Shown here one piece after another: positions 10,838 to 54,565 of a stretch of 64,000 nucleotides of DNA. A program made the position numbers and the translations under genes. Numbering within the stretch: the first letter of the stretch is position 1; every line of letters starts with the position of its first letter. The DNA lies in the NCBI GenBank assembly GCA_002071685.1, contig MWBO01000031.1, positions 702 through 64,701 on the forward strand, in the 5' to 3' direction. A model generated the notes under the pieces. The model saw only the letters and a list, made by a program, of their open reading frames with translations, was not told where the DNA came from and ran no database searches. This DNA comes from a candidate division WS2 bacterium ADurb.Bin280. Its GTDB lineage: Bacteria; Patescibacteriota; UBA1384; DTJR01.

Positions 10838-12217
10838 TTATTTTAGCTCTAACGATTTCTCAATATTTATCAATCTGTCTGGCACCTCTTCCTCAAAATT
10901 TGCCAAGTGCCAGATTTTCCCCTCATACTCCAATACAGCGTTTCCCATTGATTTTGCCGTTGAAGACAAGACAGCTTCCCTGTGACCATCTTTAGAGGAT
11001 AAATACAAACCTAAGACCTCAGACGGTGCGAAAATCCCTCTAGGAAAACCGTCTGTTCTAATTTCATTCATGGCGTTGATCGTCCCCCCGCCATCGATAT
11101 AATTGTGAAAATCTCTATCCATCCACGGATGCCCCTCTTTATTGCCGCCTTTATAAAAACCTTTTTCTCCCGCAACAATACCTTCATCAACCGCTATCAC
11201 CGTTTTAAGACGCTTGAGCGCAAAATCAGTCAGAACCTTGTTCTCGACAAGCTTTTTCAAACCGTGCCTCTCCCTCTCTTTATTTACTTCCTGAAGAAAA
11301 CTGCTTGCATAACTCGTATCATTTGAAGAAAAATTCATTTCTTCAAATTTTTTCGTGCCTGCCGGATTATTAACATTTGCAGACGACTCCCGGTCGTTTG
11401 AAACCGCTTCATCACTTATCGAAAGCTGATTTCTTGAATTCACCCTCCCCATTAGAATCGCTCCATCCTGACAAGGGCCAAGAGAAACGATCAAATCGTC
11501 GTTTGATTTTTTAAAATCAGCAATTTTTAGCTTTTCGCTCGGATACATAAATGTTTTCTTGGGCGAATAGTCGTTTGACTTTTCCCTACCATGAACACAG
11601 ACATCAAAATCGCCCTTTTTCTTTGCCATATTAATCGGCACATAAATAAAAATGGTTTGGCAAGACTTTCCTATCGCCTTTACTTTATTGCTAACCGACT
11701 CCTCTCCCCAAGAAGGAGAATAAAGTTGGACCAAAAGTTCGTCGTCAATTGGCACATCATTGAAGTAAAGTCCGGTTTTTAACTTAGTTTTTTCAATGCC
11801 TTCTCCGGTAGCCGTTTTGTAAGCGAGTGATAGTTTATCGATGTAAGAGGACGAAATTTTCTTGAGAGTTCCCCTCTTGGTAAAATAACCTCCGGACGAG
11901 ACGGCAACTTCAACTCTTTTTGCCAAATCATTGTCTGTCTCAATATCACTAACTAGAACAACTTGGCCGATTTTTTTTGTCTGACAGTCTCTAGATTCCG
12001 GAAAATCGCTAATCTCTTGAGCCGAAAAATCCTGCGAACTCAAATATCCATAGTCGTCACCCGCATCCGAGGAGACAGTATTTTTTAAAACGGTGTTTAA
12101 AAAAAATGCCAGAGCCAAAGCGAAAAGCGCAGAGCTGAAAATTCCTATAGCAAAGGTTCCTTTTAGAAAAAACTTGCTGTGAGCCGGTTTATTATTCACC
12201 AAAAATCTCCCTTTCAT
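10838..12217 (-). CDS. membrane-anchored protein with a C-terminal CAP/SCP (YkwD-like) domain
   Basis: N-terminal TM segment. The C-terminal region (NKERERHGLKKL ... SKDGHREAVLS ... GKIWHLANF) resembles the CAP superfamily pattern. Confidence 0.45.
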   Translation of the reverse strand: MKGRFLVNNKPAHSKFFLKGTFAIGIFSSALFALALAFFLNTVLKNTVSSDAGDDYGYLSSQDFSAQEISDFPESRDCQTKKIGQVVLVSDIETDNDLAKRVEVAVSSGGYFTKRGTLKKISSSYIDKLSLAYKTATGEGIEKTKLKTGLYFNDVPIDDELLVQLYSPSWGEESVSNKVKAIGKSCQTIFIYVPINMAKKKGDFDVCVHGREKSNDYSPKKTFMYPSEKLKIADFKKSNDDLIVSLGPCQDGAILMGRVNSRNQLSISDEAVSNDRESSANVNNPAGTKKFEEMNFSSNDTSYASSFLQEVNKERERHGLKKLVENKVLTDFALKRLKTVIAVDEGIVAGEKGFYKGGNKEGHPWMDRDFHNYIDGGGTINAMNEIRTDGFPRGIFAPSEVLGLYLSSKDGHREAVLSSTAKSMGNAVLEYEGKIWHLANFEEEVPDRLINIEKSLELK

Positions 12218-12428
12218 CTAGCGCAAGCGCTTCGTTTTCAAATTCTCCATTGTAAAGCTCTCTAAATTCATCGCTATTTGATGAATCGATTTTTTCAAGA
12301 TACTTCGTGGCCTGAGATTTCGTCGATCGCTCTTGACTACTTTGTTTTTCGCCAGGATACAAAAAGTAAAAAACTACAATCAAAGCGATCAAGCTCGTCG
12401 CGATCAAAAAGATAAATAGCTTCTTCAT
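12192..12428 (-). CDS. small single-pass membrane protein
   Basis: 78-aa ORF with an N-terminal hydrophobic helix. It overlaps the downstream gene start. No family recognised. Confidence 0.4.
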   Translation of the reverse strand: MKKLFIFLIATSLIALIVVFYFLYPGEKQSSQERSTKSQATKYLEKIDSSNSDEFRELYNGEFENEALALDEREIFGE

Positions 12429-12499
12429 CTCCTTAATTATAGAATAGTACTGAAAAAAATGGTATATTTAACTTACGATAAAACGGAAGCAGGAGGGGT

Positions 12500-15403
12500 T
12501 TGGTAAGAAAATATCGAAAGCTCGTTTTGTACTTTTTTTCGTTGGCCTTTCTAGTCAGCTTTTTATTCGTATTCAATAAGTACTACGCAAACGCCGATCC
12601 CATCAATCCGCAAGTCGGACAAGAAAACGTGAACGAGAGCGTCGATACGGGACGCTGGAAGGAAGACGCCGAAGTGACGGCGGTGGGAAAAGCGGCAGCT
12701 AGGGCGCGGGAAGTTCTAAACTGGGCCTTATCAATTGAAAACGCCGGTTTCACCAATCAAGAAGGTGGCTCCATTCTCAAGTCGTGGAATAAAATTCGTG
12801 ATTTACTGGGAGTTTTTTATCTAATAGTATTAATCGTTTTGGGCTTTGGCCTAATAGCCAGAGCCGCGTGGGCCGAAAGATCTAGAAGAGTTTTTGTCGC
12901 TCTGATAATTTCTTTTGTTGCCGCCTATTTCAGTTACGCCATTCTTTCAAGAGTGGTTCAATTTACCGACGAACAGATACAGCAGAGACTCTATACAATT
13001 CACAGATGGGGCGACACCGGAACTACAGAGGAAAAGCATCTTCGAGCACAAGATCTTTTGACAGTCAGCTTCAGTTATCAGGAGTTCAGAGGATTTAGAA
13101 AAGTTGGCTCATCTTACGGCGAGGCAATTGCCAATCACCTTCTGCTTGTCAAAGCCACAACACTAACGAATTACGTCATCGCCTTTATCATTTTGCTTCG
13201 AATTGTGATTCTCTGGGGCTTAGTTATTTTCTCGCCATTCGTCTTTCCTCTTTTTGTTTTTGATCTGACGAAAAATGTCGGTGTTGTTTGGGGAAGAGAA
13301 TTCTTCAGGTGGCTGATACTTGGACCACTTTTCGCTGTTTTCATTTCTCTTGTCCCCTATATATGGAACCAAACCACTGTTCCCGTGACCAACACCTATC
13401 AAAATCAGAAAGCCAAAAACAGCGGAATTCCCATAACAGTTGATAAAAACATCTTGTCTCCTTCGAGCTCTTCAGGAGACAAGACCTCTCAAAACGTCTA
13501 TGAAAGCGGGACAAACATAATTTTATCCCCTCCGGGAAATACTGGCGCGGAACTTCAAAAAGACGACGACATCTCAAGTGGTAATAATCTTTCGGAAACT
13601 GATACATACACAAGGTGGATAATCGCCCTCATGATGATTTGGGGTGCAATCGCCCTTCCCTTTATTCTCCTGAAAGTAGTTGTTAATTTTTCAATCGAAG
13701 CAGGACGGGGCATCACCAATATCGTCCTTGGAACTTCGGCTGGCCAATACATTTCTTCTGCGATACAAAAAAATAGTCCGGCAAGCGCCAATGGCGCCGA
13801 CAGAACATCCACCGGCCTGAGATTAGTTGGCGACAAAATAGATTCAAAAATTTCTCAAATCAGCTCCCAAGAGGCAAGCGCACGTCGCATTCAGAGGAAT
13901 ATCACTCAAAACAAAACAACTCCAAACTCTCTCCCCGAATCGCTTAATAATCTCGATTCATCTCAAAATTCGCCACAAGTTCTAGATATCACAAACAACG
14001 TCGCCACTTCCGATGTCAAGCCAATTGCCAAATTGGCACAAATAGAACAATCCCAGCAAAGTATGCTTTCGGGTAGTAGTTTGATTAATTCAATCTCCAA
14101 TCCGCAAAGCGCTTCAAACAACAATACTGTGCAAAATTTAGAAGCTCTCAAGCAAAACATCATCCAAAGTTCAAACAGTGGAGATAAACAGGCTCAGGGT
14201 CTTAAAAACGCCATTACAGGAAACATTTCATCTTATCTTAGTGGCGATGTAGCAAATGAAATATTGGAAAAAGATTATACGAAATTTGACCAAACGCTAC
14301 AAAAGGTCTTTTCACCTATAGAGCAAGAAGGTCAGGAACAGCTCAAGCAAATTTTTGGAATCCAAAACGCCAAAAACTTCCCTGAAATAATCGACGAACT
14401 TGCGAAGAAACAGGATCCGCGAGCACAAGGCGCGAAAAATATTTTAAGCGATATAGAACAAAGTGTAAAACTCCCACCACCACAGAAAAATGCCGCCTTG
14501 ATGGAAATTGGCAAGAACATGTCTGAAACAGAAAATATTACTGATCAAACCGTCAGAAATAATTATTCATCAATCAAATCAATCATTAATCAAATACCTC
14601 AAACAGCAAATATCGGCTTTGCTTCGCTACAAAAAGACGCTCAATCTTATTATGAAATTTCATCACGCGACATTGTCGATAACAAAATTAAGGGCGAATT
14701 AGCTGTCAATTTCACACAGTCTCTTGATAATTTGCTAGAAGGCCACAAGCAAACAGGGGGCGCTCCTTCACAAAATAGCCCGATCGCAACGATCGAAAAG
14801 GTTACAAGCAATATCAAAAATATTTCAACCAATGATGGGACACGGGGTGTGGACAATGTTCTAGCGGCAGCGAAAAGGATTGCAGATCCTCAGTCGGCAG
14901 AAAGCGAGCAAGAGAAACAAGAATACCAACAAACGAAAGAATTCATCAATGATCAGGCCGCAAACGGTAACAAACAGGCTTTGGCGATCGAGGAAGCGAT
15001 GAAAAACATTTCCAAAGAGCTGGAAATAGATGAAGCAAAAAATGTTAAAGTGACAGATATCGCCAGACTACGCGCCAGCGTTCGTGAAGATCAAGATTTT
15101 ATGAATACCAAGAAGCTCTGGTTACAAAACTACCTAAATTATCTAAACCCTTATACCAAGGATAAAGGCGACTCTCTGCTAAAAGAAATCAATCTACTTG
15201 GCCAGACGCTTAATGACATAATCTCGCCCGACAACGAAAAGAAAAAGGAAGCGCTCAAAAGAGTGCAGAAAATTATCCCATTTGCCCTGCTTGGCAATTA
15301 CAAAATCAGCGATATAGCAAAATATTTGCTTGCAAAATACGACGGAGCAAGTGAAGCTTTAAACAGCTTGCGCCAACATCAAGAAAAAAAGGAGGTTTCG
15401 TGA
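12500..15403 (+). CDS. polytopic membrane protein with a VirB6/TrbL-like segment and a long Q/N/S-rich C-terminal extension
   Basis: Multiple TM helices. The motif LRIVILWGLVIFSPFVFPLFVFDLTKNVGVVWGREFFRW is paralogous to motifs in the ORFs at 45044 and 49576. AGGAGG precedes a TTG start. Confidence 0.5.
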   Translation: MVRKYRKLVLYFFSLAFLVSFLFVFNKYYANADPINPQVGQENVNESVDTGRWKEDAEVTAVGKAAARAREVLNWALSIENAGFTNQEGGSILKSWNKIRDLLGVFYLIVLIVLGFGLIARAAWAERSRRVFVALIISFVAAYFSYAILSRVVQFTDEQIQQRLYTIHRWGDTGTTEEKHLRAQDLLTVSFSYQEFRGFRKVGSSYGEAIANHLLLVKATTLTNYVIAFIILLRIVILWGLVIFSPFVFPLFVFDLTKNVGVVWGREFFRWLILGPLFAVFISLVPYIWNQTTVPVTNTYQNQKAKNSGIPITVDKNILSPSSSSGDKTSQNVYESGTNIILSPPGNTGAELQKDDDISSGNNLSETDTYTRWIIALMMIWGAIALPFILLKVVVNFSIEAGRGITNIVLGTSAGQYISSAIQKNSPASANGADRTSTGLRLVGDKIDSKISQISSQEASARRIQRNITQNKTTPNSLPESLNNLDSSQNSPQVLDITNNVATSDVKPIAKLAQIEQSQQSMLSGSSLINSISNPQSASNNNTVQNLEALKQNIIQSSNSGDKQAQGLKNAITGNISSYLSGDVANEILEKDYTKFDQTLQKVFSPIEQEGQEQLKQIFGIQNAKNFPEIIDELAKKQDPRAQGAKNILSDIEQSVKLPPPQKNAALMEIGKNMSETENITDQTVRNNYSSIKSIINQIPQTANIGFASLQKDAQSYYEISSRDIVDNKIKGELAVNFTQSLDNLLEGHKQTGGAPSQNSPIATIEKVTSNIKNISTNDGTRGVDNVLAAAKRIADPQSAESEQEKQEYQQTKEFINDQAANGNKQALAIEEAMKNISKELEIDEAKNVKVTDIARLRASVREDQDFMNTKKLWLQNYLNYLNPYTKDKGDSLLKEINLLGQTLNDIISPDNEKKKEALKRVQKIIPFALLGNYKISDIAKYLLAKYDGASEALNSLRQHQEKKEVS

Positions 15404-17238
15404 AACTAAAAAGAACAATTGCTCTATTTACTTTACTTTCTACAATTACGCTGCTTACCGGATGCTCAACGGTGAACCGAGAAGAAAACAATGACACCGA
15501 CCTGTCTTCAATCAGCGACAGCCCCTACGGGGAGCAAGCCGGCTTCAATCCCGACAACCCCTATCCGGTGATCAAGACTATTAATAATTCTTTGATGATC
15601 GAGATTGATTATTATAAATACAACGGACAAATTGATCACACGACAAAATATTACGGGATCTCGAGGGGCTTCATCTCCGATTCAAAACTATCCGAAGGCA
15701 CCTTTGAATGCTTGCCCATAAGAATAAAAAAACTCTCACAGGACAATTGCACAGGAAAATACAATTACCGCAAACTAATGCTTTCATCAAAAAGCTCAGC
15801 CCTGGAAGACGAATTTGATAGTGAGGCGTACCTCTTGGAAAAAAATTTCCGGTTTGAAAACCTTGTCACAAATACAGATAATTACGACATGCTTTTTTTG
15901 CACAATTACACCCAGAGCGCCCTGCATGCTCAAGGGGGCAAGATCTTTGACATATTTTTAAGCGAAGAAGTATTAAGTGATCTCGATAAAGAAAATAAAA
16001 AGCGCGGAACAGTTACGGGCAAAAACAAAGATGGTGGCATTGCTACTGTCGGACGAACAATCCGTGAAATCCTTGAAGACTGTGGCCAGAGTGATTTATC
16101 GGGCGTAAATCCGGCGATGGTGGGAGTTGTCCAACAAGGTCCGGGAGTTGATGATGACGAGATTATCGCCTTGAACAAAAAATACAGTGAAACCGTCGAT
16201 GTTCCGACGAAAACTGCTATTGATTCGCTTTTGCAAAAAGCAAGTGCAATTAAAGATTTAAACAAAGGACGTAACAAAGATGGCGATATCGACAAAATGC
16301 TTGGCGATGACATTCTTCAAAGAGTGTGGTATTTAGCAGGGACCTCATCATTTAGCGCCCTTGCTAATCATCCTCCGGGGAGCGTTTTTGCCTCGGGAAA
16401 TGAAATACAACTTGGAGAATTAATCAGCGAATTAAGAGACAAAATCGACAAGGAAGCAAAAATAAACCTCACCATAAATTATAATGAAGGGTCGACTAGC
16501 TTTATAAATATGTCCGTCGAATATTTAGGTCACATCACTCATTATCTTTATCGGCCGGCCGCCTACGCTTCGGCAGAAATATCAGTTCCTCAAGCTACAG
16601 ACGCAAACGGCTTAGCGGTTGGCGCAGTCGAAATTGAACAGGAAGAAGCGGGTGAGATTTCAAGTGACCCGTGGTGTGGTTTCACACCTGAATGCAAGCC
16701 AGCCATTTATCTGTATCCCGAAAAAACGACTCTGCTAAACGTCAAAATCGGCCCCTCCGTTGGTCAACGCACCATCACCATTCCACCCTATGATGCAAGA
16801 ACCGGCTGGCAAGTGACAGCCACTAAGAGCGGGAAAATCTACTGGGGAGCGAATTCATACACCCACTTGTTTTACGAAGCGCTTACCCCTAATCCAAAAG
16901 TTCCTCAAACCGGCTGGATAATTGACGGAAATAATATTGAAAAATCTCTTTATGACATCGGCAGAAGATTGGGATTGAACGAAACAGAAAGCGAAGAACT
17001 TTCTGATTATTGGACGAAAAAGCTATCAGGTTCGCCCTATTATTTTGTCGGGTTGATAGACGAAGATGAAATTGAAAGACTCGAGCCATTGAAAATCGAG
17101 CCCCAACCAAAAACAACAATAAGAATTAGGTTTTACTTTAAATCTCTAAAAGAAATAATACCGGTTAAAAGTCCGGATATAAAAATCAAACAAAGAGTTG
17201 GCTTCACGGCTGTAGAATGGGGCGGATACGTTAAATAG
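15400..17238 (+). CDS. lipoprotein of unknown function
   Basis: Signal peptide with an LLTGCS lipobox. A GTGA start/stop overlap with the upstream gene and an AAGGAGG SD indicate coupling. Confidence 0.6.
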   Translation: MKLKRTIALFTLLSTITLLTGCSTVNREENNDTDLSSISDSPYGEQAGFNPDNPYPVIKTINNSLMIEIDYYKYNGQIDHTTKYYGISRGFISDSKLSEGTFECLPIRIKKLSQDNCTGKYNYRKLMLSSKSSALEDEFDSEAYLLEKNFRFENLVTNTDNYDMLFLHNYTQSALHAQGGKIFDIFLSEEVLSDLDKENKKRGTVTGKNKDGGIATVGRTIREILEDCGQSDLSGVNPAMVGVVQQGPGVDDDEIIALNKKYSETVDVPTKTAIDSLLQKASAIKDLNKGRNKDGDIDKMLGDDILQRVWYLAGTSSFSALANHPPGSVFASGNEIQLGELISELRDKIDKEAKINLTINYNEGSTSFINMSVEYLGHITHYLYRPAAYASAEISVPQATDANGLAVGAVEIEQEEAGEISSDPWCGFTPECKPAIYLYPEKTTLLNVKIGPSVGQRTITIPPYDARTGWQVTATKSGKIYWGANSYTHLFYEALTPNPKVPQTGWIIDGNNIEKSLYDIGRRLGLNETESEELSDYWTKKLSGSPYYFVGLIDEDEIERLEPLKIEPQPKTTIRIRFYFKSLKEIIPVKSPDIKIKQRVGFTAVEWGGYVK

Positions 17239-44516: not shown

Positions 44517-45047
44517 ATGATTCTTATCGTGTTGGGATTGACGGTGGTTTTGATAATCATCTTGTTAATTCTGTCACCGACAAGCAAAAAAGATCAATCA
44601 ATAACCGAGCAAGACAAAATCAAGACCTCTCAAGGAGAAAATAACATTGTTGCTCTTCCGACCCAAACAGCTTCCTCGCCCCAAGGGGGTGGGATCTCCG
44701 GTGGCAAGCTCGCCGATTCGAGTGTTGCAGTGGCGTCGGTAACACCATTTCCTGGATCGGGAGATCTGGACTGGACAAGAAACGACAAAATTGACCGAGA
44801 AAAACTAGTGGAAAACAGCAAGGTGAGAAATATCAGTGCCTGTGAATTATCGGGACTTGAAAACAGCTGGAAAAACCCGGTTGAGAAATTCGTTTGCGAT
44901 AGCATGGAATTTCTCGACCTAAGAGTTTTGGAGGGATTAAATCAACTAGCTTGTATGCTTTCGCTTAATGCCCTTCAAACAAATGTCGATGCAGATCTTG
45001 ACATGGCCTACATCGACGGAGAGTGTCGAATAATAGATAGAAAATGA
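44517..45047 (+). CDS. single-pass membrane protein with a 4-Cys C-terminal domain (operon gene 1)
   Basis: N-terminal TM segment. AGGAGGG at 44489-44495 lies 21 nt from the ATG; an in-frame CTG at 44499 is an alternative start. Confidence 0.45.
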   Translation: MILIVLGLTVVLIIILLILSPTSKKDQSITEQDKIKTSQGENNIVALPTQTASSPQGGGISGGKLADSSVAVASVTPFPGSGDLDWTRNDKIDREKLVENSKVRNISACELSGLENSWKNPVEKFVCDSMEFLDLRVLEGLNQLACMLSLNALQTNVDADLDMAYIDGECRIIDRK

Positions 45048-45787
45048 AAAAAGTTATATTCATCCTCTCAGCTGTCTTTTTGCTCTCCGGTTTTGGCGCA
45101 CCGTGCCTTTGCGCTAACACTGCGCTAGCCTATAGCCCAGGTCAACCTGGTGAATTGACAGAAGCGCTGAGACTTCAAAAAAGCAGCAGCGAGTGGATCA
45201 ACCAGCTATACAATGTCAGCAAAACACTCCTAAATGCCATTTTGCTCATTGGATTAATCATTGCCGCAATCGCTATGACCTTAAGTCTGCCGATAGAGAG
45301 CTACACTATCAAAAAAATGATGCCCCGAGTTATATTTGCTGTGTTAATCGGAAACACCATAATCAGCATCGCCGCCATCGGATCCTCAATCATCGACAAC
45401 ATCATGCAAATAAGTATTTTCAAATGGACCTGGACAGACACGCTTTCGATTATGGGAATGAACCTGGCGGATACCCTCAAAGCGTTTGCATATTCTCTTC
45501 CGGCGATAACCAATGCGGTTTCGGGTGGAATTCTTGTGATTGGGCTACTCTTATCGCTTCTACCAGCACTTTTTATAATAATCGTAAATTTGTTCCTTAG
45601 CCTTCGAGTTTGGATTGTATTAATAGCGGTTGCGCTAGGTCCGATTGCCGTAGGGCTTTCACTCCTCCCCTTTACAGAAGGTCTTTACAAAAAATGGTAC
45701 AAGATTTTGATATTTTGGCTTGTTTTTCCGCTAATTGTTAACTTCTTTTTATTTATCATCAAACTAATACCAGATATAAATCCCTAG
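45044..45787 (+). CDS. VirB6/TrbL-like polytopic membrane protein, minimal form (operon gene 2)
   Basis: Signal peptide and 5-6 TM helices. Carries the motif LRVWIVLIAVALGPIAVGLSLLPFTEGLYKKWYKILIFWLVFPLIVNF. ATGA overlap with gene 1. Confidence 0.5.
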   Translation: MKKVIFILSAVFLLSGFGAPCLCANTALAYSPGQPGELTEALRLQKSSSEWINQLYNVSKTLLNAILLIGLIIAAIAMTLSLPIESYTIKKMMPRVIFAVLIGNTIISIAAIGSSIIDNIMQISIFKWTWTDTLSIMGMNLADTLKAFAYSLPAITNAVSGGILVIGLLLSLLPALFIIIVNLFLSLRVWIVLIAVALGPIAVGLSLLPFTEGLYKKWYKILIFWLVFPLIVNFFLFIIKLIPDINP

Positions 45788-45808
45788 CTAAAAGCAATTG
45801 GAGGAAAA

Positions 45809-47653
45809 ATGAGTGAAGTTATCGCAGAGTTAATTCCAATGTTAGTAAGAACTGGAATTTTGTTACTGATAATTATGGCCCCGTTTAAATGGGAAAAAGA
45901 GTTGAGTGGATTGTGGTCTCAGGTGGTTAAATACGGCAAGATTGCCGCTGTTACTCAGGTGGCAACAATCGGCGCTGGCATAGCAGTAGGATCAAGAAAT
46001 ATTATAGAACGGCGTAAGGCGGCAAGAAATTTTGAATTTAAAAAACTCACAAGTCAAAGCGGAGAAGAATTAAATAAAAGCATAGACTCATTAGCACAGG
46101 CACGGGTAAGGCGCACCGCCAAAGATCCAGACGAAGCCAAGCGCGTAGATTTTGACACGGCAAAAGCCGAAATAAGCCAAGAAATACAAGACGGGAACAA
46201 AAGCGATATAATCAAAGACATTGCTTATGATTCGCCGGCTGGCAAACCAAAAAAAGGCTTCAACGCAAACTTTGCGATGGGTAGGTTGGGGTCGTTTGCA
46301 TTTCCCGATAGGTACCTTGACAGGATACTAACCGGCACTTCAACTGTAATGTTTCTTACGCAAGCATTGAAAAACCGTTCCGAGTTTAAAAAGAACATAG
46401 CAAAATCAACATTTGGCAAATTTGCAGAAACGGGACTAGCCGAGGGAGCCCCCGCAAAAATAGATCGAAGGATTCAGGGGCAATATGAAGACATTCGAAC
46501 ATTTGACTCAATCAGCGATGTGGCAGATTATGATCCAGAAAATTTAAAAGTACTCAGGGGTATATATGCTCGTTTAATGGGCCTGCCGTATAACGAAGAT
46601 GAAAGCCTAATGACAACCGATCAGTTAGTAGCGGTGACAAGTGGCCTTATCGAACATTTAAAGGATCCCATCCTCGGCGGAAAAGATGCGAGAGCCTATG
46701 ATAACGATCCAGTGCTTATTGCCTTCCAAGAATATCACCGCAACAAACCAAATGGCCCGACTGATGGCTACAACGAAATCGGAGCAATGATCGCTGTTCA
46801 CAAAAAAATAATGGAACTGGCCCCTAGAGAACTGAGCCGTTATGCAAGAGGAGAAAAGCTTGGTGAAGAAGATAGAAGAAGGTTTATGAGCGCAAGCATG
46901 TTGGGTCAACTAGGAAAAGTAGGGTATCAACCCACAGATTTCAAAACAAAAGATAGGGGTTCTGGTGACGAAGGTGACGAAGAACCACCTCCAGGAACAA
47001 GCCCTACAGGACCAAGCAGACCACCGACGCCAACTCCACCACCACCTCCGGAATCATCGTCAAGTCCAGACTACCTGGAACTTGTAAAAGCCGTCTCCGC
47101 AGTGGAGAGCAAGGTTGAATCTTCAGGAGATAGGGCTAAGGATGGCCTGGAAAAAATCGGGGGGCTAATCGCACACTTCGGCGAAAACCCTCCGAAAAAC
47201 ATTGACGCTCAAGCAGTGGCTCAAACTAATAGACGAATCTTGACGCAATTAAAAGATCGAGGGAAAGAAACAGTCGCAGATCAAATCGAAAGCGAGGGAC
47301 AATCTCTTGATGTCGAGAGTTTGCCCGAAGAAGACAGGGGCGTTGCAGAAGAATATTTACGAAACCAGAGAATTGCGACCGCCCTTTCGGTTAACGAAAC
47401 TAACCCCATAGCAATTAGTATAGCGCAAAACATATTGACAAAACCAGGAGAGGACCTACCTAACAAATTGAATCAACTACAGAGCTCTCTTGATGCATTA
47501 ACTAAAACTCGAGATGGAGGCGATGCGTTCAGAGGTCCCATAATACAAGCCATAAAAGACATAACCGGCACCACTGCAACCTCCGAAAGAGACATAATAT
47601 TTAATACTCAAAGCGCTATTGAGGCATTGAGAAACATAAACCCAAAGGAGTAG
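45809..47653 (+). CDS. hypothetical membrane-anchored protein with a Pro-rich linker (operon gene 3)
   Basis: Two N-terminal TM helices, a PPPGTSPTGPSRPPTPTPPPPP linker and a GGAGGA SD. No NTPase motif seen. Confidence 0.5.
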   Translation: MSEVIAELIPMLVRTGILLLIIMAPFKWEKELSGLWSQVVKYGKIAAVTQVATIGAGIAVGSRNIIERRKAARNFEFKKLTSQSGEELNKSIDSLAQARVRRTAKDPDEAKRVDFDTAKAEISQEIQDGNKSDIIKDIAYDSPAGKPKKGFNANFAMGRLGSFAFPDRYLDRILTGTSTVMFLTQALKNRSEFKKNIAKSTFGKFAETGLAEGAPAKIDRRIQGQYEDIRTFDSISDVADYDPENLKVLRGIYARLMGLPYNEDESLMTTDQLVAVTSGLIEHLKDPILGGKDARAYDNDPVLIAFQEYHRNKPNGPTDGYNEIGAMIAVHKKIMELAPRELSRYARGEKLGEEDRRRFMSASMLGQLGKVGYQPTDFKTKDRGSGDEGDEEPPPGTSPTGPSRPPTPTPPPPPESSSSPDYLELVKAVSAVESKVESSGDRAKDGLEKIGGLIAHFGENPPKNIDAQAVAQTNRRILTQLKDRGKETVADQIESEGQSLDVESLPEEDRGVAEEYLRNQRIATALSVNETNPIAISIAQNILTKPGEDLPNKLNQLQSSLDALTKTRDGGDAFRGPIIQAIKDITGTTATSERDIIFNTQSAIEALRNINPKE

Positions 47654-47656
47654 TTA

Positions 47657-48055
47657 ATGAAAAATTTGACTCTTAGGTTATATGAAAATATCCTTCTTCA
47701 AAATACCCGTGATGAATTGGTAATAGAATTAGTTGGTGAACTTGACTACTTAAAGGATAAGATAAAGAAAATGGCAGAAAAAAAACTACCTTTATCTATT
47801 GAAAGGGGCGACCGGTCAGCCATTCGTAGTATCATCAGAGAATTAGCAGAGTGTCATCTAAAACTAAATGATCCGAGAAAATGGCAGGATATTGAAAGTG
47901 CGAAACGCGAAGAATTGATAGCATTAACTACTGAACAAATTATCAAGATATTAATCGAAAAATACCCTTCTCTAAATGAAGATAGCCTTTATGCAATCGG
48001 CCCTGCATTGATAGAGTGGAACTTTCAAGCCACACAATGGAGAAATGAGGAATAA
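47657..48055 (+). CDS. small soluble helical protein (operon gene 4)
   Basis: 132-aa ORF starting 3 nt after the gene 3 stop. No family recognised. Confidence 0.5.
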   Translation: MKNLTLRLYENILLQNTRDELVIELVGELDYLKDKIKKMAEKKLPLSIERGDRSAIRSIIRELAECHLKLNDPRKWQDIESAKREELIALTTEQIIKILIEKYPSLNEDSLYAIGPALIEWNFQATQWRNEE

Positions 48056-48058
48056 ATA

Positions 48059-49579
48059 ATGCCTGATGAAAAACAAATCAATAACGATCAAAATGAAGAA
48101 CTTGACACCAAAGAGGATGGTCCCGACTCTTTGCAAGATGCTTACGACGACTACGAATCAATACGAGATTTAATAAAAAAACCATCTGATAATAAAAATA
48201 AAGAAGACTCTAGTCAATCAAATCAAAAAGAAAACGAGCCTACCGCCGGTGAACGAGGGGCTAAAGAAGAACAAGCCGACCTCCGTCAAGCAGATAGCCA
48301 AAATGTAAACCCCAATCAATCGCCAGAGGGACAGGATCGGCGCCCAACCCAAGAAACCAAAGCACCACAAAATACAAATCCTCGTGCCAAGGAAAACCAG
48401 ACCGGCCAAGCAACGAAGGATGCAAGCGAAAGCAACCCAAAGTCAAGTGGGGCCGAAGAAGCTCGAGCACCGGAGAGAGCGCCTCAAGCACAAACCCAGA
48501 ACGCCAAAGGCACTCCGGCGACACAAGGCGAACAGGGTGCCAAGGGGGCACTTTCTCAAGCCGGCAAGACAGGAGCTAGCGCTGAAAAAAACCTAGCCGG
48601 CCAAGGACTGAAGGCTGGAGCAAAACAAGCGGGTAAGGAAGTGGCCAAAGAAGGAGCGCTTGCCGCCAGTCGCACAGCCGCGGCAGCCGCTGCGCCAGAA
48701 TCTATGGGAGCTTCCCTTGCCGCCCAAGCCGGAATCGAGGCTGCCTCGCGATCAGTCGGATTTATTCAAAAAAATTTTTGGCTGATTCTAACTATCGTAA
48801 TCGCCTTATCTTTTGTAATCGGCGGAGGATTTGCCTACACCTACTTGGCTAAATTCTTTTTCTTCAATAAATTGGGAGGCGAGGAGAAGCAATTGTTAAA
48901 CGATCTTCGAGATGGCGTCAAGCAAGAGCGTCTAGTGCTTCAAAACGATGAGGATATTCAAAAAATCGAAAAAGGCGTGGGAAGTTTTGTCGCAACTAGC
49001 TTGATAAACGAACTTAGCAATAACCACGAAAAGATCAAAATAAACTACCTCGGTTCGCAAGATTCCTCAAGTGGCAACGAGCCCTACGAGTTTGATGTTC
49101 TGGGAGCTGATATAATAAAGTGTGTGAACTTGGCAAGCTCATCAAAAGCGGGCGAGTTTTTTGTTGACTTTGGCCAAAGCGCTTGGCAACAAGAACTCAA
49201 GAATCTTGGGGCAAATACTCTTTGCGCCGTCGATTATTATCCGAAAATCGAGCAAGCAAAGACTGGCAAATACTCTGACCATTATCAAATCAGAGAGTTC
49301 AGCGCCGATCAAGCTGATGCCTTTATTGATAAAATAATTGCTTATAAGCAGGCACAAATAATTGATGAAACAGCCGACATTGCCGCTAACGAGCAAAAAC
49401 AGCAAGACAATTTGCTCGCACCGCCTGATGTCATCAGAGTTAGCGAGCAGGTGGTAAGCGGTTTGCCTCCCCAATTAATAGAAAAGGTTAAATCAGCCAA
49501 AAACTACTCGTCATTCTCTTTGGCAACCTTCCCCAAGGGTGCAAGTAATACGGCAATGCACATTAGTTATCTAGAATGA
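48059..49579 (+). CDS. bitopic protein: disordered N-terminal region, one TM helix, C-terminal globular domain (operon gene 5)
   Basis: Low-complexity Q/A/G/K-rich first 230 aa, a TM helix FWLILTIVIALSFVIGGGFAY, then about 250 aa of unknown domain. Confidence 0.5.
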   Translation: MPDEKQINNDQNEELDTKEDGPDSLQDAYDDYESIRDLIKKPSDNKNKEDSSQSNQKENEPTAGERGAKEEQADLRQADSQNVNPNQSPEGQDRRPTQETKAPQNTNPRAKENQTGQATKDASESNPKSSGAEEARAPERAPQAQTQNAKGTPATQGEQGAKGALSQAGKTGASAEKNLAGQGLKAGAKQAGKEVAKEGALAASRTAAAAAAPESMGASLAAQAGIEAASRSVGFIQKNFWLILTIVIALSFVIGGGFAYTYLAKFFFFNKLGGEEKQLLNDLRDGVKQERLVLQNDEDIQKIEKGVGSFVATSLINELSNNHEKIKINYLGSQDSSSGNEPYEFDVLGADIIKCVNLASSSKAGEFFVDFGQSAWQQELKNLGANTLCAVDYYPKIEQAKTGKYSDHYQIREFSADQADAFIDKIIAYKQAQIIDETADIAANEQKQQDNLLAPPDVIRVSEQVVSGLPPQLIEKVKSAKNYSSFSLATFPKGASNTAMHISYLE

Positions 49580-52371
49580 TGAAAAAAAAATTATTTATCT
49601 TCACGGCTTTTGCCCTCTTCCTTTTTTTACCGTTTTCCTTAGCAAATGCAGCTAGCTCAACCGGGACGTACCAAAACGGCATAAAAAATTGGGAGAAAAA
49701 AACAAGCCCGATAGTTGCGGGTCAGAGCATTGACCCCAAAGAGATTTGCGATGAAATGTTTGCTGCAGATGAAAAAAATCTTTTCAAAGATGTCATTTGT
49801 TCGCTAAGTCGTGTAATCGCCGCCTCTACCTCACAATTTTCAACCGAAATGACATGCAAGATCCAGCAGGCACCAACGAAAAGCAACTATGTCGCCGTCG
49901 ACTTTGAATATAAAAATGGCTCTTGCCAAGCCACTTCTTCAAGCAGTAATTCTTCTGAAATATTCGGCTCAAAAACTGGCTCATCCCCCCTTGCTCAAAC
50001 GGCACCGACCGGACTCTACACAGGCAAAAGTATACTAACATCCGACTTGGCAGCGAACGAACAAGGGACAAAAAAGGCCTTCAACGCTCTTGCCTGGGTA
50101 CTTTCTATCGGCGCCCTGCTCGCACTCCTCGTCTATGCCTTTTCAAGTATTCTAAATATCGAGATAAACACTTATTCATTCAAAAAAGCCCTTCCACGCA
50201 CAATCGGCGCACTAATTGGCGGGTGGGTGTCGTTGTCAGTAATAATTCTACTTTCAAGGTTTGTCGATTTCTTCTATCGCTTCAATATTTTCTCCCCCTA
50301 TCAGTCACTCCACCCGATGGCAAACATTTTCTCTGGTAATTTCATCTTTTCTTCATCGCCTACAATCTCAAACAATGGTCTTGAAAACAGCATTTCTCTA
50401 ATCTTTCAAGCAGGAGGTCAACTTCTCGAAAATCAATCCTCCATCGCCTCGCTAATACTTGGCGCGCTTGTCTTGGGGATTCCTGCGATTGTGGTAATAG
50501 TGTTTGAGTATGTAATGGCTCTAAGACCCTTTGTTGTCTCCCTGCTGGCGGCAGTTTCCCCCATTGCCTTTGCCTCGTTCATCCTTCCGCAAACGCAAGT
50601 ATTTTTCAAAAAGTGGCTCCAATATTTACTGATCGCTCTTTTTTATCCATTGGCAGTCAATTTCGTTTTTTATTTTTTGAACCTGATCGAGGTAAGCGGT
50701 AGTAATCCGGTCCCCTTCTTCGCTCAATGGGCCTTCAAGATATTTGCAATTATTGTTTTGATAAGACTACCTTTTAAAATCACCAGCGATGTCGCTATTC
50801 TTTCCAGTAAACTGTCAACAAGCCCACTCGGCCAATCGCTTGGCCTAAACAAAGCGTTTCCTTCAAAATCAACGACTGCAGAAGGATTGCCAAAGAGCGA
50901 TGACGCACTCAAAGCAAATAATAAAATGGCGCAAGTTGTCGCACCAAAGAGAAACTTTTTATCAAAAATTTCACAAAACACAAAAAATGAAACAAGTTTC
51001 AAAAAGCCCCGAACCGACTACAGTCAAAATCTGGAAAATCTTGGCAAGAAGCAGAATATTTTAATGAGCCAAGCCAATGATGCCAATCTGCAAAGAAGCC
51101 CCGAAATGATCAAAAATTCAATTTCAGATCTCTCTCTCGGTATCTTAAAATCGGTAGCGCACAAAAGCGATATGCAGATATGGCGAGACACCAGATTGAT
51201 AGAACAACTCAAAAATCAAGACGGGAGAATTCTTGACGAACAGGGTGCCGCCCTCAGGGCCGATTCGGTGCGAAAAGCGATCAGATTGTCACAACTGTCT
51301 GAAAACGGAGAGCTCGTCAATAAAGATCTTATTGAACACTTTGCCTCAAAAGGAGCGCTTGCCCTTTTACCACAAGAAACAATCCGGAGAGCCCTTGAGC
51401 AAAAAATTATCTCCCAAAATGATCTCGCCTCGTCATTTGGCAAAAATTACAAATTAGAAAATCGAGATAAAAACGCCGGATTGATCGAAAAAGATCGAAT
51501 TAGAGGAATACTAGACCAAGATCGCCTCGATTATTCAAGCGGATTTAATTTTCTAAAAAATCAAATAGACGAGGAGGCGGACGCCCTCTTGCCAAAAGGA
51601 AAAATTACAGGGGATGAAATAGCCAAAAATTTCTTATCTGAAGCAAATGTTTCGCGTGAAAACCTGCCCCACGTCACAAAGCGTCTCAAGGAAGAAGAAA
51701 ATAGTTCCATCGCCAAACTTTCCTCGGCAATTTCAAGTGCCGGAGTAGAGAAAAAAACTGCTCTCGCCTTGGCGCAAAATAAACAAATCAGTCCAGCACA
51801 GATAGCCAAGTACTTACCCGACCAAAGCAAGGACCAGCAAACTTTGAAACTGATCAGCCAGCAAGTCGCTAAGCGCGACCTAAATAGCGCAGTCTCTTCC
51901 AAAATAAACGAAACGGTCAGCGCTCAAGAGTTTGCTTCAGCAGCAGCAATAACCCAAAAACTCTCTTCAGTGTTGAAAGAAAACCCTCAACTCAAATTAG
52001 ACGAAATTTCTAAGATGTCTTCAGCGTTGCTTGAAAAAACAAAAGGCGACGCAGATGAGGCGCAAATATCCCCCTTGGTGAGTCAAATAGAAAAATTCCA
52101 TCCAGCAATGCAAATTGAGACAGCTACAAATGCCAAAAGCAAAACTGAAATTGCAAAGAAAAAAGCTCAAGAAGTTAGCGAGACAATTGAAGTAATCAGA
52201 CAAGCGGGATTCAATGAAGACGATGTCAAAAGTAACCCCGCTCTAATTATGGAAAAAATTAAAAAGTTCATCTACGGCAAAAACGATAGCAGCAAGAGTG
52301 ATGCAAACTCTCCAGTCAAAAAAGATAGTACTTTTGACAGTGAATTAAGCAAAATATCTTCACAGTCTTAA
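49576..52371 (+). CDS. VirB6/TrbL-like polytopic membrane protein with an N-terminal secreted domain and a ~500 aa C-terminal extension (operon gene 6)
   Basis: Signal peptide, and the motif LRPFVVSLLAAVSPIAFASFILPQTQVFFKKWLQYLLIALFYPLAVNF. ATGA overlap with gene 5. Confidence 0.5.
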   Translation: MMKKKLFIFTAFALFLFLPFSLANAASSTGTYQNGIKNWEKKTSPIVAGQSIDPKEICDEMFAADEKNLFKDVICSLSRVIAASTSQFSTEMTCKIQQAPTKSNYVAVDFEYKNGSCQATSSSSNSSEIFGSKTGSSPLAQTAPTGLYTGKSILTSDLAANEQGTKKAFNALAWVLSIGALLALLVYAFSSILNIEINTYSFKKALPRTIGALIGGWVSLSVIILLSRFVDFFYRFNIFSPYQSLHPMANIFSGNFIFSSSPTISNNGLENSISLIFQAGGQLLENQSSIASLILGALVLGIPAIVVIVFEYVMALRPFVVSLLAAVSPIAFASFILPQTQVFFKKWLQYLLIALFYPLAVNFVFYFLNLIEVSGSNPVPFFAQWAFKIFAIIVLIRLPFKITSDVAILSSKLSTSPLGQSLGLNKAFPSKSTTAEGLPKSDDALKANNKMAQVVAPKRNFLSKISQNTKNETSFKKPRTDYSQNLENLGKKQNILMSQANDANLQRSPEMIKNSISDLSLGILKSVAHKSDMQIWRDTRLIEQLKNQDGRILDEQGAALRADSVRKAIRLSQLSENGELVNKDLIEHFASKGALALLPQETIRRALEQKIISQNDLASSFGKNYKLENRDKNAGLIEKDRIRGILDQDRLDYSSGFNFLKNQIDEEADALLPKGKITGDEIAKNFLSEANVSRENLPHVTKRLKEEENSSIAKLSSAISSAGVEKKTALALAQNKQISPAQIAKYLPDQSKDQQTLKLISQQVAKRDLNSAVSSKINETVSAQEFASAAAITQKLSSVLKENPQLKLDEISKMSSALLEKTKGDADEAQISPLVSQIEKFHPAMQIETATNAKSKTEIAKKKAQEVSETIEVIRQAGFNEDDVKSNPALIMEKIKKFIYGKNDSSKSDANSPVKKDSTFDSELSKISSQS

Positions 52372-53675: not shown

Positions 53676-54218
53676 TCAGCGAGCCCGAGCAAGCAGTAGC
53701 CGGCCGGTCGCTTGCATTTCCTGTCCGCGCTCAAGGCGATCGCCAACCTGCGAAGCGGCGAACGCCTTATACGCATAGGCGCGGTCGCCGTTACAGCACT
53801 CAAGCACTATCCGGAAGACGTAGTTGCCGGACCGGCCAACCTTCCTGACGATCTCAAGTGCCGCCTCGCCTGCGATCTTGCACTGGCGTCCTTCTTCGTT
53901 CCAGCCCACCAGAAAATCCAGGGCCTCCGCGCCACCATTGGCGCTCGGGACGATCACCAGAACATTCTGGTAGCCAGGGTTGTGTGTCGCATTTTCGCGA
54001 ACAGAGCAAATGGCGTTCCTCTCAAGCTTCCACGGGGGATTGGGCCGACTGTTGTCGATCAGAGCATTCGCTCCGACAACAAATGACCCGCCGTCCTTAC
54101 CGGCAAGTCCGCGAATCCTTTGTATTGCGCCAGATGTGACGTAAACGCCCTGGCCGTTTGGCGCCCTCCCAATCCCATATTTAGCGCCTGACGGCAGCTC
54201 TAGTGTCGCCTCTACCAT
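53676..54218 (-). CDS. hypothetical protein, GC-rich island D, gene 2 (180 aa)
   Basis: Its ATG lies inside the ATGGTAG overlap with gene 1. Codon structure looks coding, and a terminator lies 9 nt downstream. No family recognised. Confidence 0.5.
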   Translation of the reverse strand: MVEATLELPSGAKYGIGRAPNGQGVYVTSGAIQRIRGLAGKDGGSFVVGANALIDNSRPNPPWKLERNAICSVRENATHNPGYQNVLVIVPSANGGAEALDFLVGWNEEGRQCKIAGEAALEIVRKVGRSGNYVFRIVLECCNGDRAYAYKAFAASQVGDRLERGQEMQATGRLLLARAR

Positions 54219-54565
54219 TTCGCGACCTCCATGATCCTTGCGGGCTCGCCGATGATGAAGTATACCCGACCGGACTTGTCTGGATCGTGGATGATCATCG
54301 ACAAGCCAAGCTCGAGGTACAACTCTTCTTTCGGCTGATTCAGAAGAATCCTGGCCACAGCTGCCGCTGCTTGTCCGGCGAAAACGATCACCGCTTCGCT
54401 GACCGCGCTAGCCAATGTGTTGCGCGGTAGCTTGAGCTGCTGCTCGATCGCCTCCTTGCTGAGATGACAATGTACAAGACAGGGATCGCACGGCATCGCC
54501 AACAGGCAATCGTAGCCAGCTGGCACCCGCCACCACAAAACCTCACCATGAGCGAGGACGTACAT
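54212..54565 (-). CDS. hypothetical protein, GC-rich island D, gene 1 (117 aa)
   Basis: GGGAGGAG SD 6 nt upstream of ATG 54565. No family recognised. Confidence 0.5.
   Translation of the reverse strand: MYVLAHGEVLWWRVPAGYDCLLAMPCDPCLVHCHLSKEAIEQQLKLPRNTLASAVSEAVIVFAGQAAAAVARILLNQPKEELYLELGLSMIIHDPDKSGRVYFIIGEPARIMEVAKW

Follow-up and report, generated by a model that had tools for sequence, protein, structure and literature searches.

What is made by two overlapping genes that have so far been annotated only as encoding "hypothetical proteins" in candidate division WS2 bacterium ADurb.Bin280? We addressed this question in a 64-kb stretch of its DNA (64,000 nucleotides, hereafter the window), in which an original prediction had described a gene for a VirB6-like membrane protein translationally coupled to a lipoprotein gene. 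Both open reading frames (ORFs) were confirmed on the + strand, at 12500–15403 (967 amino acids, aa) and 15400–17238 (612 aa), and their products match BWY43_00496 and BWY43_00497 with 100% identity. The larger ORF starts with TTG at 12500, and the sequence GTGA at 15400–15403 overlaps its TGA stop with the GTG start of the lipoprotein gene. The two-gene organization, the overlap and the lipobox of the second product were all verified from the ORFs, the AGGAGG sites and the sequence itself. In the reading that we consider probable, the larger product represents a divergent extended VirB6, serving as the membrane platform or protochannel of a patescibacterial pilus or secretion apparatus resembling a type IV secretion system (T4SS); its large helical domain would be a docking site, and the lipoprotein, which ends in a domain here called lipoC, would be an envelope accessory.

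Probable kinship of the 967-aa protein with VirB6

The 967-aa protein has 51 homologs in a large protein collection, and its family occurs in at least 177 species-representative genomes of Patescibacteria, a lower bound obtained with only two peptide patterns. Searches of Pfam and NCBIfam gave no match for the window protein. Signs of kinship with VirB6 come from the family as a whole, in which 25 of 50 members match Pfam TrbL at E ≤ 0.01. Eight members tested singly against the TrbL/VirB6 profile (PF04610; length 215, gathering threshold 25.9 bits) scored 19–26 bits over profile positions 5–191 of 215 (~87%), in the region of transmembrane (TM) helices TM1–TM4, and P0037, at 26.0 bits, was the sole tested member above the threshold. 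When an AlphaFold2 (AF2) model of the window protein (mean predicted local distance difference test score, pLDDT, 82) was compared with the PDB using Foldseek, only chains of TrwI/VirB6 from plasmid R388 reached a probability of 0.75–0.85, with TM-scores to the target of 0.36–0.41 over 232–263 columns. Together with the VirB2-type pilin neighbours found in related loci (see below), these family-wide borderline TrbL matches and the TrwI/VirB6 chains as sole high-probability fold matches bear out the "VirB6-like" designation.

Elsewhere in the window, a second locus encodes a 931-aa and a 247-aa protein that are clear mutual paralogs (BLASTP E 1e-13), and the 931-aa protein matches Pfam TrbL (23.5 bits, E 5e-5). 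BLASTP aligns the 967-aa protein with the 931-aa protein at E 0.004, pairing the motif SPFVFPLFVFDLTKNVGVVWGREFFRW of the former with SPIAFASFILPQTQVFFKKWLQY of the latter; neither BLASTP nor hhalign found significant similarity to the 247-aa protein alone. In profile–profile comparison by hhalign, the match between the 967-aa family and the 931 + 247 pair reaches 87% probability (E 4e-6); it is collinear for ~168 columns and takes in several TM helices. Against the 931-aa protein alone, the probability is 65% over 154 columns. The shared motif is therefore not merely compositional. No protein of the second locus resembles the middle or C-terminal part of the tail of the 967-aa protein. Because similarity is remote and limited to the core, and the tails are unrelated, comparison of the sequences indicates that the three VirB6-like genes are old and widely diverged branches within a single superfamily rather than recent duplicates. 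The terms "paralog" and "duplicate loci" in the original prediction were thus too strong, and the mirrored architecture that it saw in the 967- and 931-aa proteins is analogous outside the core. Its idea of modular variants of one apparatus is at most a conjecture; the window contains neither a T4SS ATPase nor another T4SS core part. Profile searches of both VirB6-like families against PDB sequences returned coiled-coil or G-protein-coupled receptor noise only, and a homolog search with the 931 + 247 alignment found 2 proteins only, as hydrophobic words flooded the candidate list.

Resemblance to VirB6/TrbL could also stem from hydrophobic composition, in a polytopic membrane protein of some generic kind (a transporter or scaffold, for example), with an unrelated lipoprotein merely co-transcribed. 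The missing Pfam match of the window protein, the BLASTP E-value of only 0.004 to the 931-aa protein, Foldseek E-values >0.5 and the many other contexts of lipoC proteins all speak for such a protein. We nevertheless give this explanation little credence, as three independent weak signals converge on one family, the alignments are collinear over 170–190 residues and take in ~87% of the Pfam profile, a genuine T4SS_pilin gene is a conserved neighbour, and lipoC adjacency recurs across three deep clades. None of the four lines (Pfam, profile–profile comparison, fold search and gene neighbourhood) is decisive alone for the window protein; taken together, they make compositional coincidence unlikely. 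On this basis, the 967-aa family appears to belong truly, if only just, to the TrbL/VirB6 superfamily as a branch of its own.

Weak matches to the TrbC/VirB2-pilin family were also observed on the TM1–loop–TM2 hairpin of the VirB6-like core in 5 of 50 members (for example P0039, aa ~93–157, E 0.006). These are probably hairpin mimicry, but could hint at a pilin-like module.

Predicted architecture of the 967-aa protein

The features of the locus are collected in Table 1. The N-terminus is K/R-rich and continues into a hydrophobic helix and an ANA/D cleavage-like site, at which the protein may be processed. The core is predicted to comprise a conserved extracytoplasmic N-terminal helix, EVTAVGKAAARAREVLNW, five TM helices (about 102–120, 131–149, 222–244, 271–289 and 373–391) and two outward loops (aa 150–213 and 290–372). 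The loop at 121–130 is strongly basic (4 K/R) and is placed inside by the positive-inside rule. The predicted topology, with which the AF2 helices agree, is that of a signal peptide followed by five TM helices, N-out and C-in. Conservation is concentrated in the core, in a segment at ~510–570 and in the C-terminal module. Within the core it peaks in the motif SPFVFPLFVFDLTKNVGVVWGREFFRW, in which S245, P246 and W264 are family-invariant and E267, F268, R270 and W271 near-invariant.

Table 1. Features of the VirB6-like/lipoprotein locus and remote homologs of the VirB6-like protein in the window
Feature	Coordinates	Strand	Evidence
Shine-Dalgarno AGGAGG, 3 nt 5' of the TTG start of the VirB6-like gene	12491..12496	+	Direct sequence reading
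Putative 967-aa extended VirB6/TrbL-superfamily membrane protein (BWY43_00496)	12500..15403	+	ORF; homologs; TrbL matches; Foldseek TrwI/VirB6
Predicted N-terminal signal peptide or signal anchor, aa 1–32	12500..12595	+	Hydropathy and charge; AF2 helix 2–25
Conserved polytopic core, aa 56–411	12665..13732	+	Conservation; AF2; hydropathy/positive-inside rule; TrbL and 931/247 alignments
Motif SPFVFPLFVFDLTKNVGVVWGREFFRW, aa 245–271	13232..13312	+	Most conserved stretch, between TM3 and TM4
Predicted cytoplasmic all-helical domain, aa 478–967 (~490 aa)	13931..15400	+	AF2; predicted topology
Conserved C-terminal module of the tail, aa 851–967	15050..15400	+	Conservation; hidden Markov model (HMM)
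Coupling junction (AGGAGG 15390–15395; GTG start 15400; TGA stop 15401–15403)	15390..15403	+	Sequence reading
612-aa lipoprotein (BWY43_00497)	15400..17238	+	ORF; 34 homologs; AF2 model pLDDT 75
Lipoprotein signal peptide and lipobox L-T-G-C (Cys22)	15400..15465	+	Regular expression; alignment
Lineage-specific beta-rich N-terminal region of the lipoprotein, aa 40–424	15517..16671	+	HMM
lipoC C-terminal domain, aa 425–612 (188 aa), extracytoplasmic	16672..17235	+	Exhaustive HMMER; conservation
247-aa minimal VirB6-like protein, remote homolog	45044..45787	+	BLASTP to 931-aa protein, E 1e-13
931-aa extended VirB6-like protein, remote homolog in the core only	49576..52371	+	Pfam TrbL; hhalign

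A low-confidence linker (aa 423–475) leads into the tail, where AF2 predicts ~25 helices with pLDDT mostly >90. The original prediction had seen here a Q/N/S/K-rich, cytoplasmic-looking tail of ~550 aa. Enrichment is real (S, N, K and Q at 9–10% each) and a cytoplasmic location is predicted, whereas low complexity does not hold, as a helical fold is predicted; the confidently modelled helices rule out a disordered low-complexity region. The tail domain matched no solved structure, either in a profile search of PDB sequences or with Foldseek. Its last 117 residues were found by HMM in 84 of 88 related loci, and the near-invariant residues of this module are D866, K871, W874, Y878, W892, P927, G932 and Y942.

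Comparison with known VirB6 proteins and T4SSs

Extended VirB6 proteins, as defined by Alvarez-Martinez & Christie, have at least five hydrophobic helices and one or more large central or C-proximal hydrophilic domains (PMC12857230); examples are the Rickettsiales VirB6 paralogs and the MPF_FA TcpH/ConG-type proteins of 700–900 aa (PMC12857230, PMC7648143). The predicted architecture of the window protein corresponds to this definition, with its core at aa 56–411 and a hydrophilic region of ~550 aa, helical at pLDDT >90 over aa 478–967. Also as in those systems, several VirB6 or VirB6-like proteins of very different size (here 247, 931 and 967 aa) occur in one small genome, some of them away from other T4SS genes. 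The window protein differs in that its sequence similarity sits at the detection limit, in that its extension is predicted to be a folded helical domain of ~490 aa with a conserved terminal module, whereas the MPF_FA additions are described as "unstructured" (PMC12857230), in the lack of a nearby T4SS ATPase, and in the linkage of its family to ClpB and to a lipoC-domain protein.

TrwI/VirB6 of R388 (PDB 7O3V, 8RT9, 8RTD) provides the best-probability structural matches and, like the window protein by prediction, is polytopic with an N-out, C-in topology; in most loci of the family a VirB2-type pilin is adjacent. The likeness to PF04610 lies in coverage, in that family members span ~87% of the profile. 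Against both references, scores are at or below thresholds and the window protein is ~3 times longer. The host here is also monoderm, with no outer-membrane complex, unlike the R388 system.

Chromosomal T4SSs of Patescibacteria comprise VirB4, TrsD, PrgI/VirB3, VirB6 and arrays of VirB2-like pilins (PMC12102498). The family studied here belongs to the same phylum-level group, is likewise chromosomal with no relaxase association, and in related loci has T4SS_pilin (PF18895) genes, including arrays, beside the VirB6-like gene. In the published survey, VirB6 lies mostly near virB4 and is "scarce" in Microgenomatia, "suggesting extreme sequence divergence" (PMC12102498). In contrast, the present family is not beside virB4, and its dnaK–clpB context does not appear in that survey. 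The family is abundant in genomes labelled as Levy-, Roizman- and Daviesbacteria.

The lipoprotein and its lipoC domain

The lipobox of the 612-aa protein (L19-T20-G21-C22; sequence MKLKRTIALFTLLSTITLLTG/C) was identified with the pattern [LVI][ASTVI][GAS]C and is kept in 16 of the 18 closest homologs, in support of the predicted lipoprotein. The mature protein has two parts. An HMM of aa 40–424 (385 aa) matches just 5 loci, all close relatives, and this region has no Pfam or PDB match; NCBIfam likewise lacks a model for the 612-aa protein. Distant homologs share only the C-terminal lipoC domain (CKPAIYLYPE...), for which the model reaches pLDDT ~90. Exhaustive HMMER searches found it in 8,428 cluster representatives at E ≤ 1e-3 and in 4,792 at E ≤ 1e-30, so the suggestion that the C-terminal region is a discrete domain holds. 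About 20 of its residues are invariant, including K433, P434, Y437, L438, Y439, P440, E530, W538, R575, R599, W607, G608 and G609.

The lipoC domain is nearly always at the extreme C-terminus of proteins of ~550–650 aa, and no match was found in Pfam, NCBIfam, PDB sequences or PDB folds; Foldseek with the lipoprotein against the PDB gave nothing credible. Every carrier examined has a lipobox, a TM anchor or a signal peptide, and lipoC is therefore extracytoplasmic. Named carriers are "hypothetical" proteins of Patescibacteria, with a few from Spirochaetes and Lachnospiraceae. Foldseek against BFVD returned a single significant match, A0A3G4ZNZ8 (E 1.8e-10, 21% identity), itself an uncharacterised protein with this domain. 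It comes from a metagenomic bin of the giant virus Terrestrivirus, which could reflect horizontal transfer or contamination of the bin.

The pairing of the two genes extends beyond the window. It is kept in two related loci, L092 and L093 (44% and 36% identity), with a 17-nt overlap in the former and a 46-nt gap in the latter. Among 80 species-representative loci, a lipoC protein is encoded within 10 kb of the VirB6-like gene in 25, and directly 3' on the same strand in ~14, with gaps of −7 to +91 nt. The directly downstream cases come from at least three clades, between which the VirB6-like cores are only ~30% identical. The majority of the family loci have no lipoC neighbour, and lipoC proteins also turn up in unrelated neighbourhoods; the association is therefore recurrent, though facultative, and is probably functional.

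A pair of this kind could form a self-contained surface-display or adhesion unit, independent of any pilus, in which the VirB6-like protein exports or anchors the lipoprotein, or a lipoC-bound molecule, for host contact. Translational coupling and the conservation of the pair in relatives fit such a unit, as do the occasional lipoC fusions to LRR, Big_2, SH3, TSP3 and ankyrin modules, a repertoire common in proteins that make contacts at the cell surface. However, a dedicated exporter would be superfluous for a lipoprotein with a Sec/Lsp-type signal of its own, and a lipoC neighbour is missing in most family members. We regard this as a rather improbable account of the locus.

Gene neighbourhoods of the family: pilins, ClpB and chaperones

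In 65 of 84 related loci, the same-strand gene directly 5' of the VirB6-like gene encodes a two-helix protein of ~100 aa. A representative matches Pfam T4SS_pilin (PF18895) at 31.5 bits, above the threshold of 26.6, and some loci contain arrays of three such pilins. The dominant gene order in the family is hrcA-grpE-dnaK-dnaJ-[pilin]-[VirB6-like]-clpB, and in some loci the VirB6-like gene overlaps clpB. One ClpB ortholog adjoins the VirB6-like gene almost always (L001, L003–L005, L009–L088, L092 and L093). In the clade of the window the dnaK context is gone and the same ortholog, 47–50% identical to ClpB from the Microgenomatia context, is still adjacent, either divergent upstream (L001, L009, L010, L092 and L093) or downstream (L012). 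The patescibacterial T4SS survey of 2025 makes no mention of ClpB, DnaK or chaperones (PMC12102498).

These neighbours raise the possibility of a chaperone or membrane quality-control module, in which the VirB6-like protein anchors or regulates ClpB, with DnaK/DnaJ, through its helical domain, and VirB6 ancestry is historical only. The placement of the gene between dnaJ and clpB in about 50–65 of 84 loci, the persistence of ClpB despite loss of dnaK and flipped orientation, and a conserved cytoplasmic domain without a known partner all favour this explanation. Yet tblastn over the 64 kb found no ClpB in the window, where the VirB6-like gene is intact and conserved, and a T4SS pilin gene accompanies the VirB6-like gene in 65 loci. 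The co-location may also be mere inherited synteny, because ClpB and DnaK are both encoded by housekeeping genes. On balance such a module seems unlikely, if somewhat less so than the surface-display unit discussed above.

The same neighbours might instead indicate that [T4SS pilin(s)]-[extended VirB6-like]-[ClpB], often with a lipoC protein, constitutes a VirB4-independent pilus or secretion device encoded in a heat-shock operon. ClpB would dock on the helical domain of the VirB6-like protein, and this AAA+ unfoldase would power extraction of pilins or threading of substrates through the VirB6 channel. The window would then show a derived state, in which only the VirB6-like/lipoprotein pair remains after loss of the linked ClpB and pilin. 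We offer this as a speculative possibility that is probably incorrect, about as doubtful as the surface-display unit.

Several loci contain further genes. At L073:3522–16641, a ClpB-like gene (1048 aa), a divergent lipoC gene, three T4SS pilin genes and the VirB6-like gene are followed by genes for a SpoIID-domain protein, a TM protein, a DUF5657 protein and a 624-aa protein. SpoIID domains belong to a family of cell-wall lytic enzymes, and this one could have a VirB1-like role in opening the cell wall. Downstream of clpB, L025, L029, L043, L070 and similar loci encode secreted proteases (S8 subtilisin-like, M4 thermolysin-like and an HExxH-like type, "c23"). These share a Cys-rich C-terminal tail (C-x2-DP-x-C-x5-8-SIQ-x-CPL-x-C), which may be a sorting or anchoring signal.

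Proposed function and significance

We favour an extended VirB6 at the centre of a T4SS-like apparatus, a model built on gene linkage and translational coupling as well as on homology and architecture. In this model, the signal peptide and a short helix outside the cytoplasm would precede the five-helix membrane core with its two outward loops, and the core would be followed by the cytoplasmic all-helical domain with its conserved terminal module. By analogy with VirB6 of R388, the core may oligomerise in the membrane. VirB6 recruits pilins in the R388 model (reviewed in PMC12857230), and the VirB6-like core could similarly act as a platform or protochannel, either extracting VirB2-type pilins from the membrane so that a pilus can grow or letting substrates through. 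A partner that supplies energy or exerts regulation would dock onto the helical domain. The lipoprotein would be tethered to the outer face of the membrane, presenting lipoC next to the VirB6 loops, and is most likely an envelope accessory, either a cell-wall or surface adaptor or an enzyme. Pilins, VirB4, VirB3 and the family-linked ClpB would be encoded outside the window.

Several observations count against this proposal. The window protein itself does not match Pfam TrbL at E ≤ 0.1, and the TrwI fold matches are not significant (Foldseek E-values 0.7–1.7). No pilin was found in the window at E ≤ 10 when six-frame translations were searched with an HMM built from the neighbouring pilins, and VirB4, VirD4 and VirB3 were not detectable in it. 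T4SS ATPases are likewise missing, both within 10 kb of either VirB6-like locus and anywhere in the window. Among the neighbour clusters of 80 related loci, none of the 40 most frequent is VirB4-like, and the family is found predominantly in a heat-shock operon (dnaK-dnaJ ... clpB) rather than in a T4SS cluster. The presence of lipoC proteins in unrelated neighbourhoods, and the fact that both lipoC and the cytoplasmic domain are functionally uncharacterised, also weigh here.

The only patescibacterium tested, Southlakia epibionticum, cannot do without T4SS-like genes in its epibiotic lifestyle (PMC12102498), and how monoderms assemble VirB2-type pili is an open question. Since it is abundant in Microgenomatia-labelled genomes, beside pilin genes and away from virB4, the family is a strong candidate for the VirB6 component missing in Microgenomatia. 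What is new here is a putative orphan extended VirB6 subfamily with a predicted structured tail, and a partner that carries a novel domain. The analysis defines three testable partners, namely the structured cytoplasmic domain, the ClpB ortholog and the lipoC family (>8,000 clusters). For the window, two "hypothetical proteins" gain a reasoned annotation, in what appears to be a reduced form of a widely conserved module.

Genomic setting and other genes of the window

GC content is uniform at the locus (0.40–0.42), and the flanking genes are housekeeping genes (DHH phosphoesterase, signal peptidase I, holA, 5'-3' exonuclease and pheST). The pair is therefore part of the chromosomal core, an operon of the core genome and not a mobile element; a mobile origin was rejected given the uniform GC and the conserved housekeeping synteny. 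Promoter and terminator scans gave no signal above chance level.

A 78-aa single-pass membrane protein ORF (12192–12428, − strand) lies between the CAP-domain gene and the VirB6-like gene. L092 and L093 have ClpB, plus a 732-aa or DUF218 gene, in the place of this ORF. Because these relatives carry ClpB there, the window appears to be an exception in which ClpB has been lost from the slot beside the VirB6-like gene. The CAP-domain protein had been suggested to belong to the same envelope neighbourhood. We rejected this functional link, as its gene is syntenic in the nearest relatives only and is missing from L093.

The second locus is a run of six co-directional genes at 44517–52371 (+ strand; 176, 247, 614, 132, 506 and 931 aa) with overlapping or close boundaries. 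It encodes the two VirB6-like paralogs, four proteins without a Pfam family and no ATPase; the 506-aa protein has a long low-complexity N-terminus followed by a TM helix. Nearby, two ORFs at 53676–54565 (− strand; 180 and 117 aa), with no Pfam match recorded, lie in a stretch with a local GC content of 0.48, versus ~0.42, and their amino-acid composition differs from that of their neighbours.

NCBI places the source organism in the unplaced candidate division WS2, and all relatives of both genes carry Patescibacteria or candidate phyla radiation (CPR) labels, among them Berkelbacteria, Saccharimonadia-labelled and Microgenomatia genomes. Many related metagenome-assembled genomes are titled "uncultured Gammaproteobacteria", seemingly as placeholder names.

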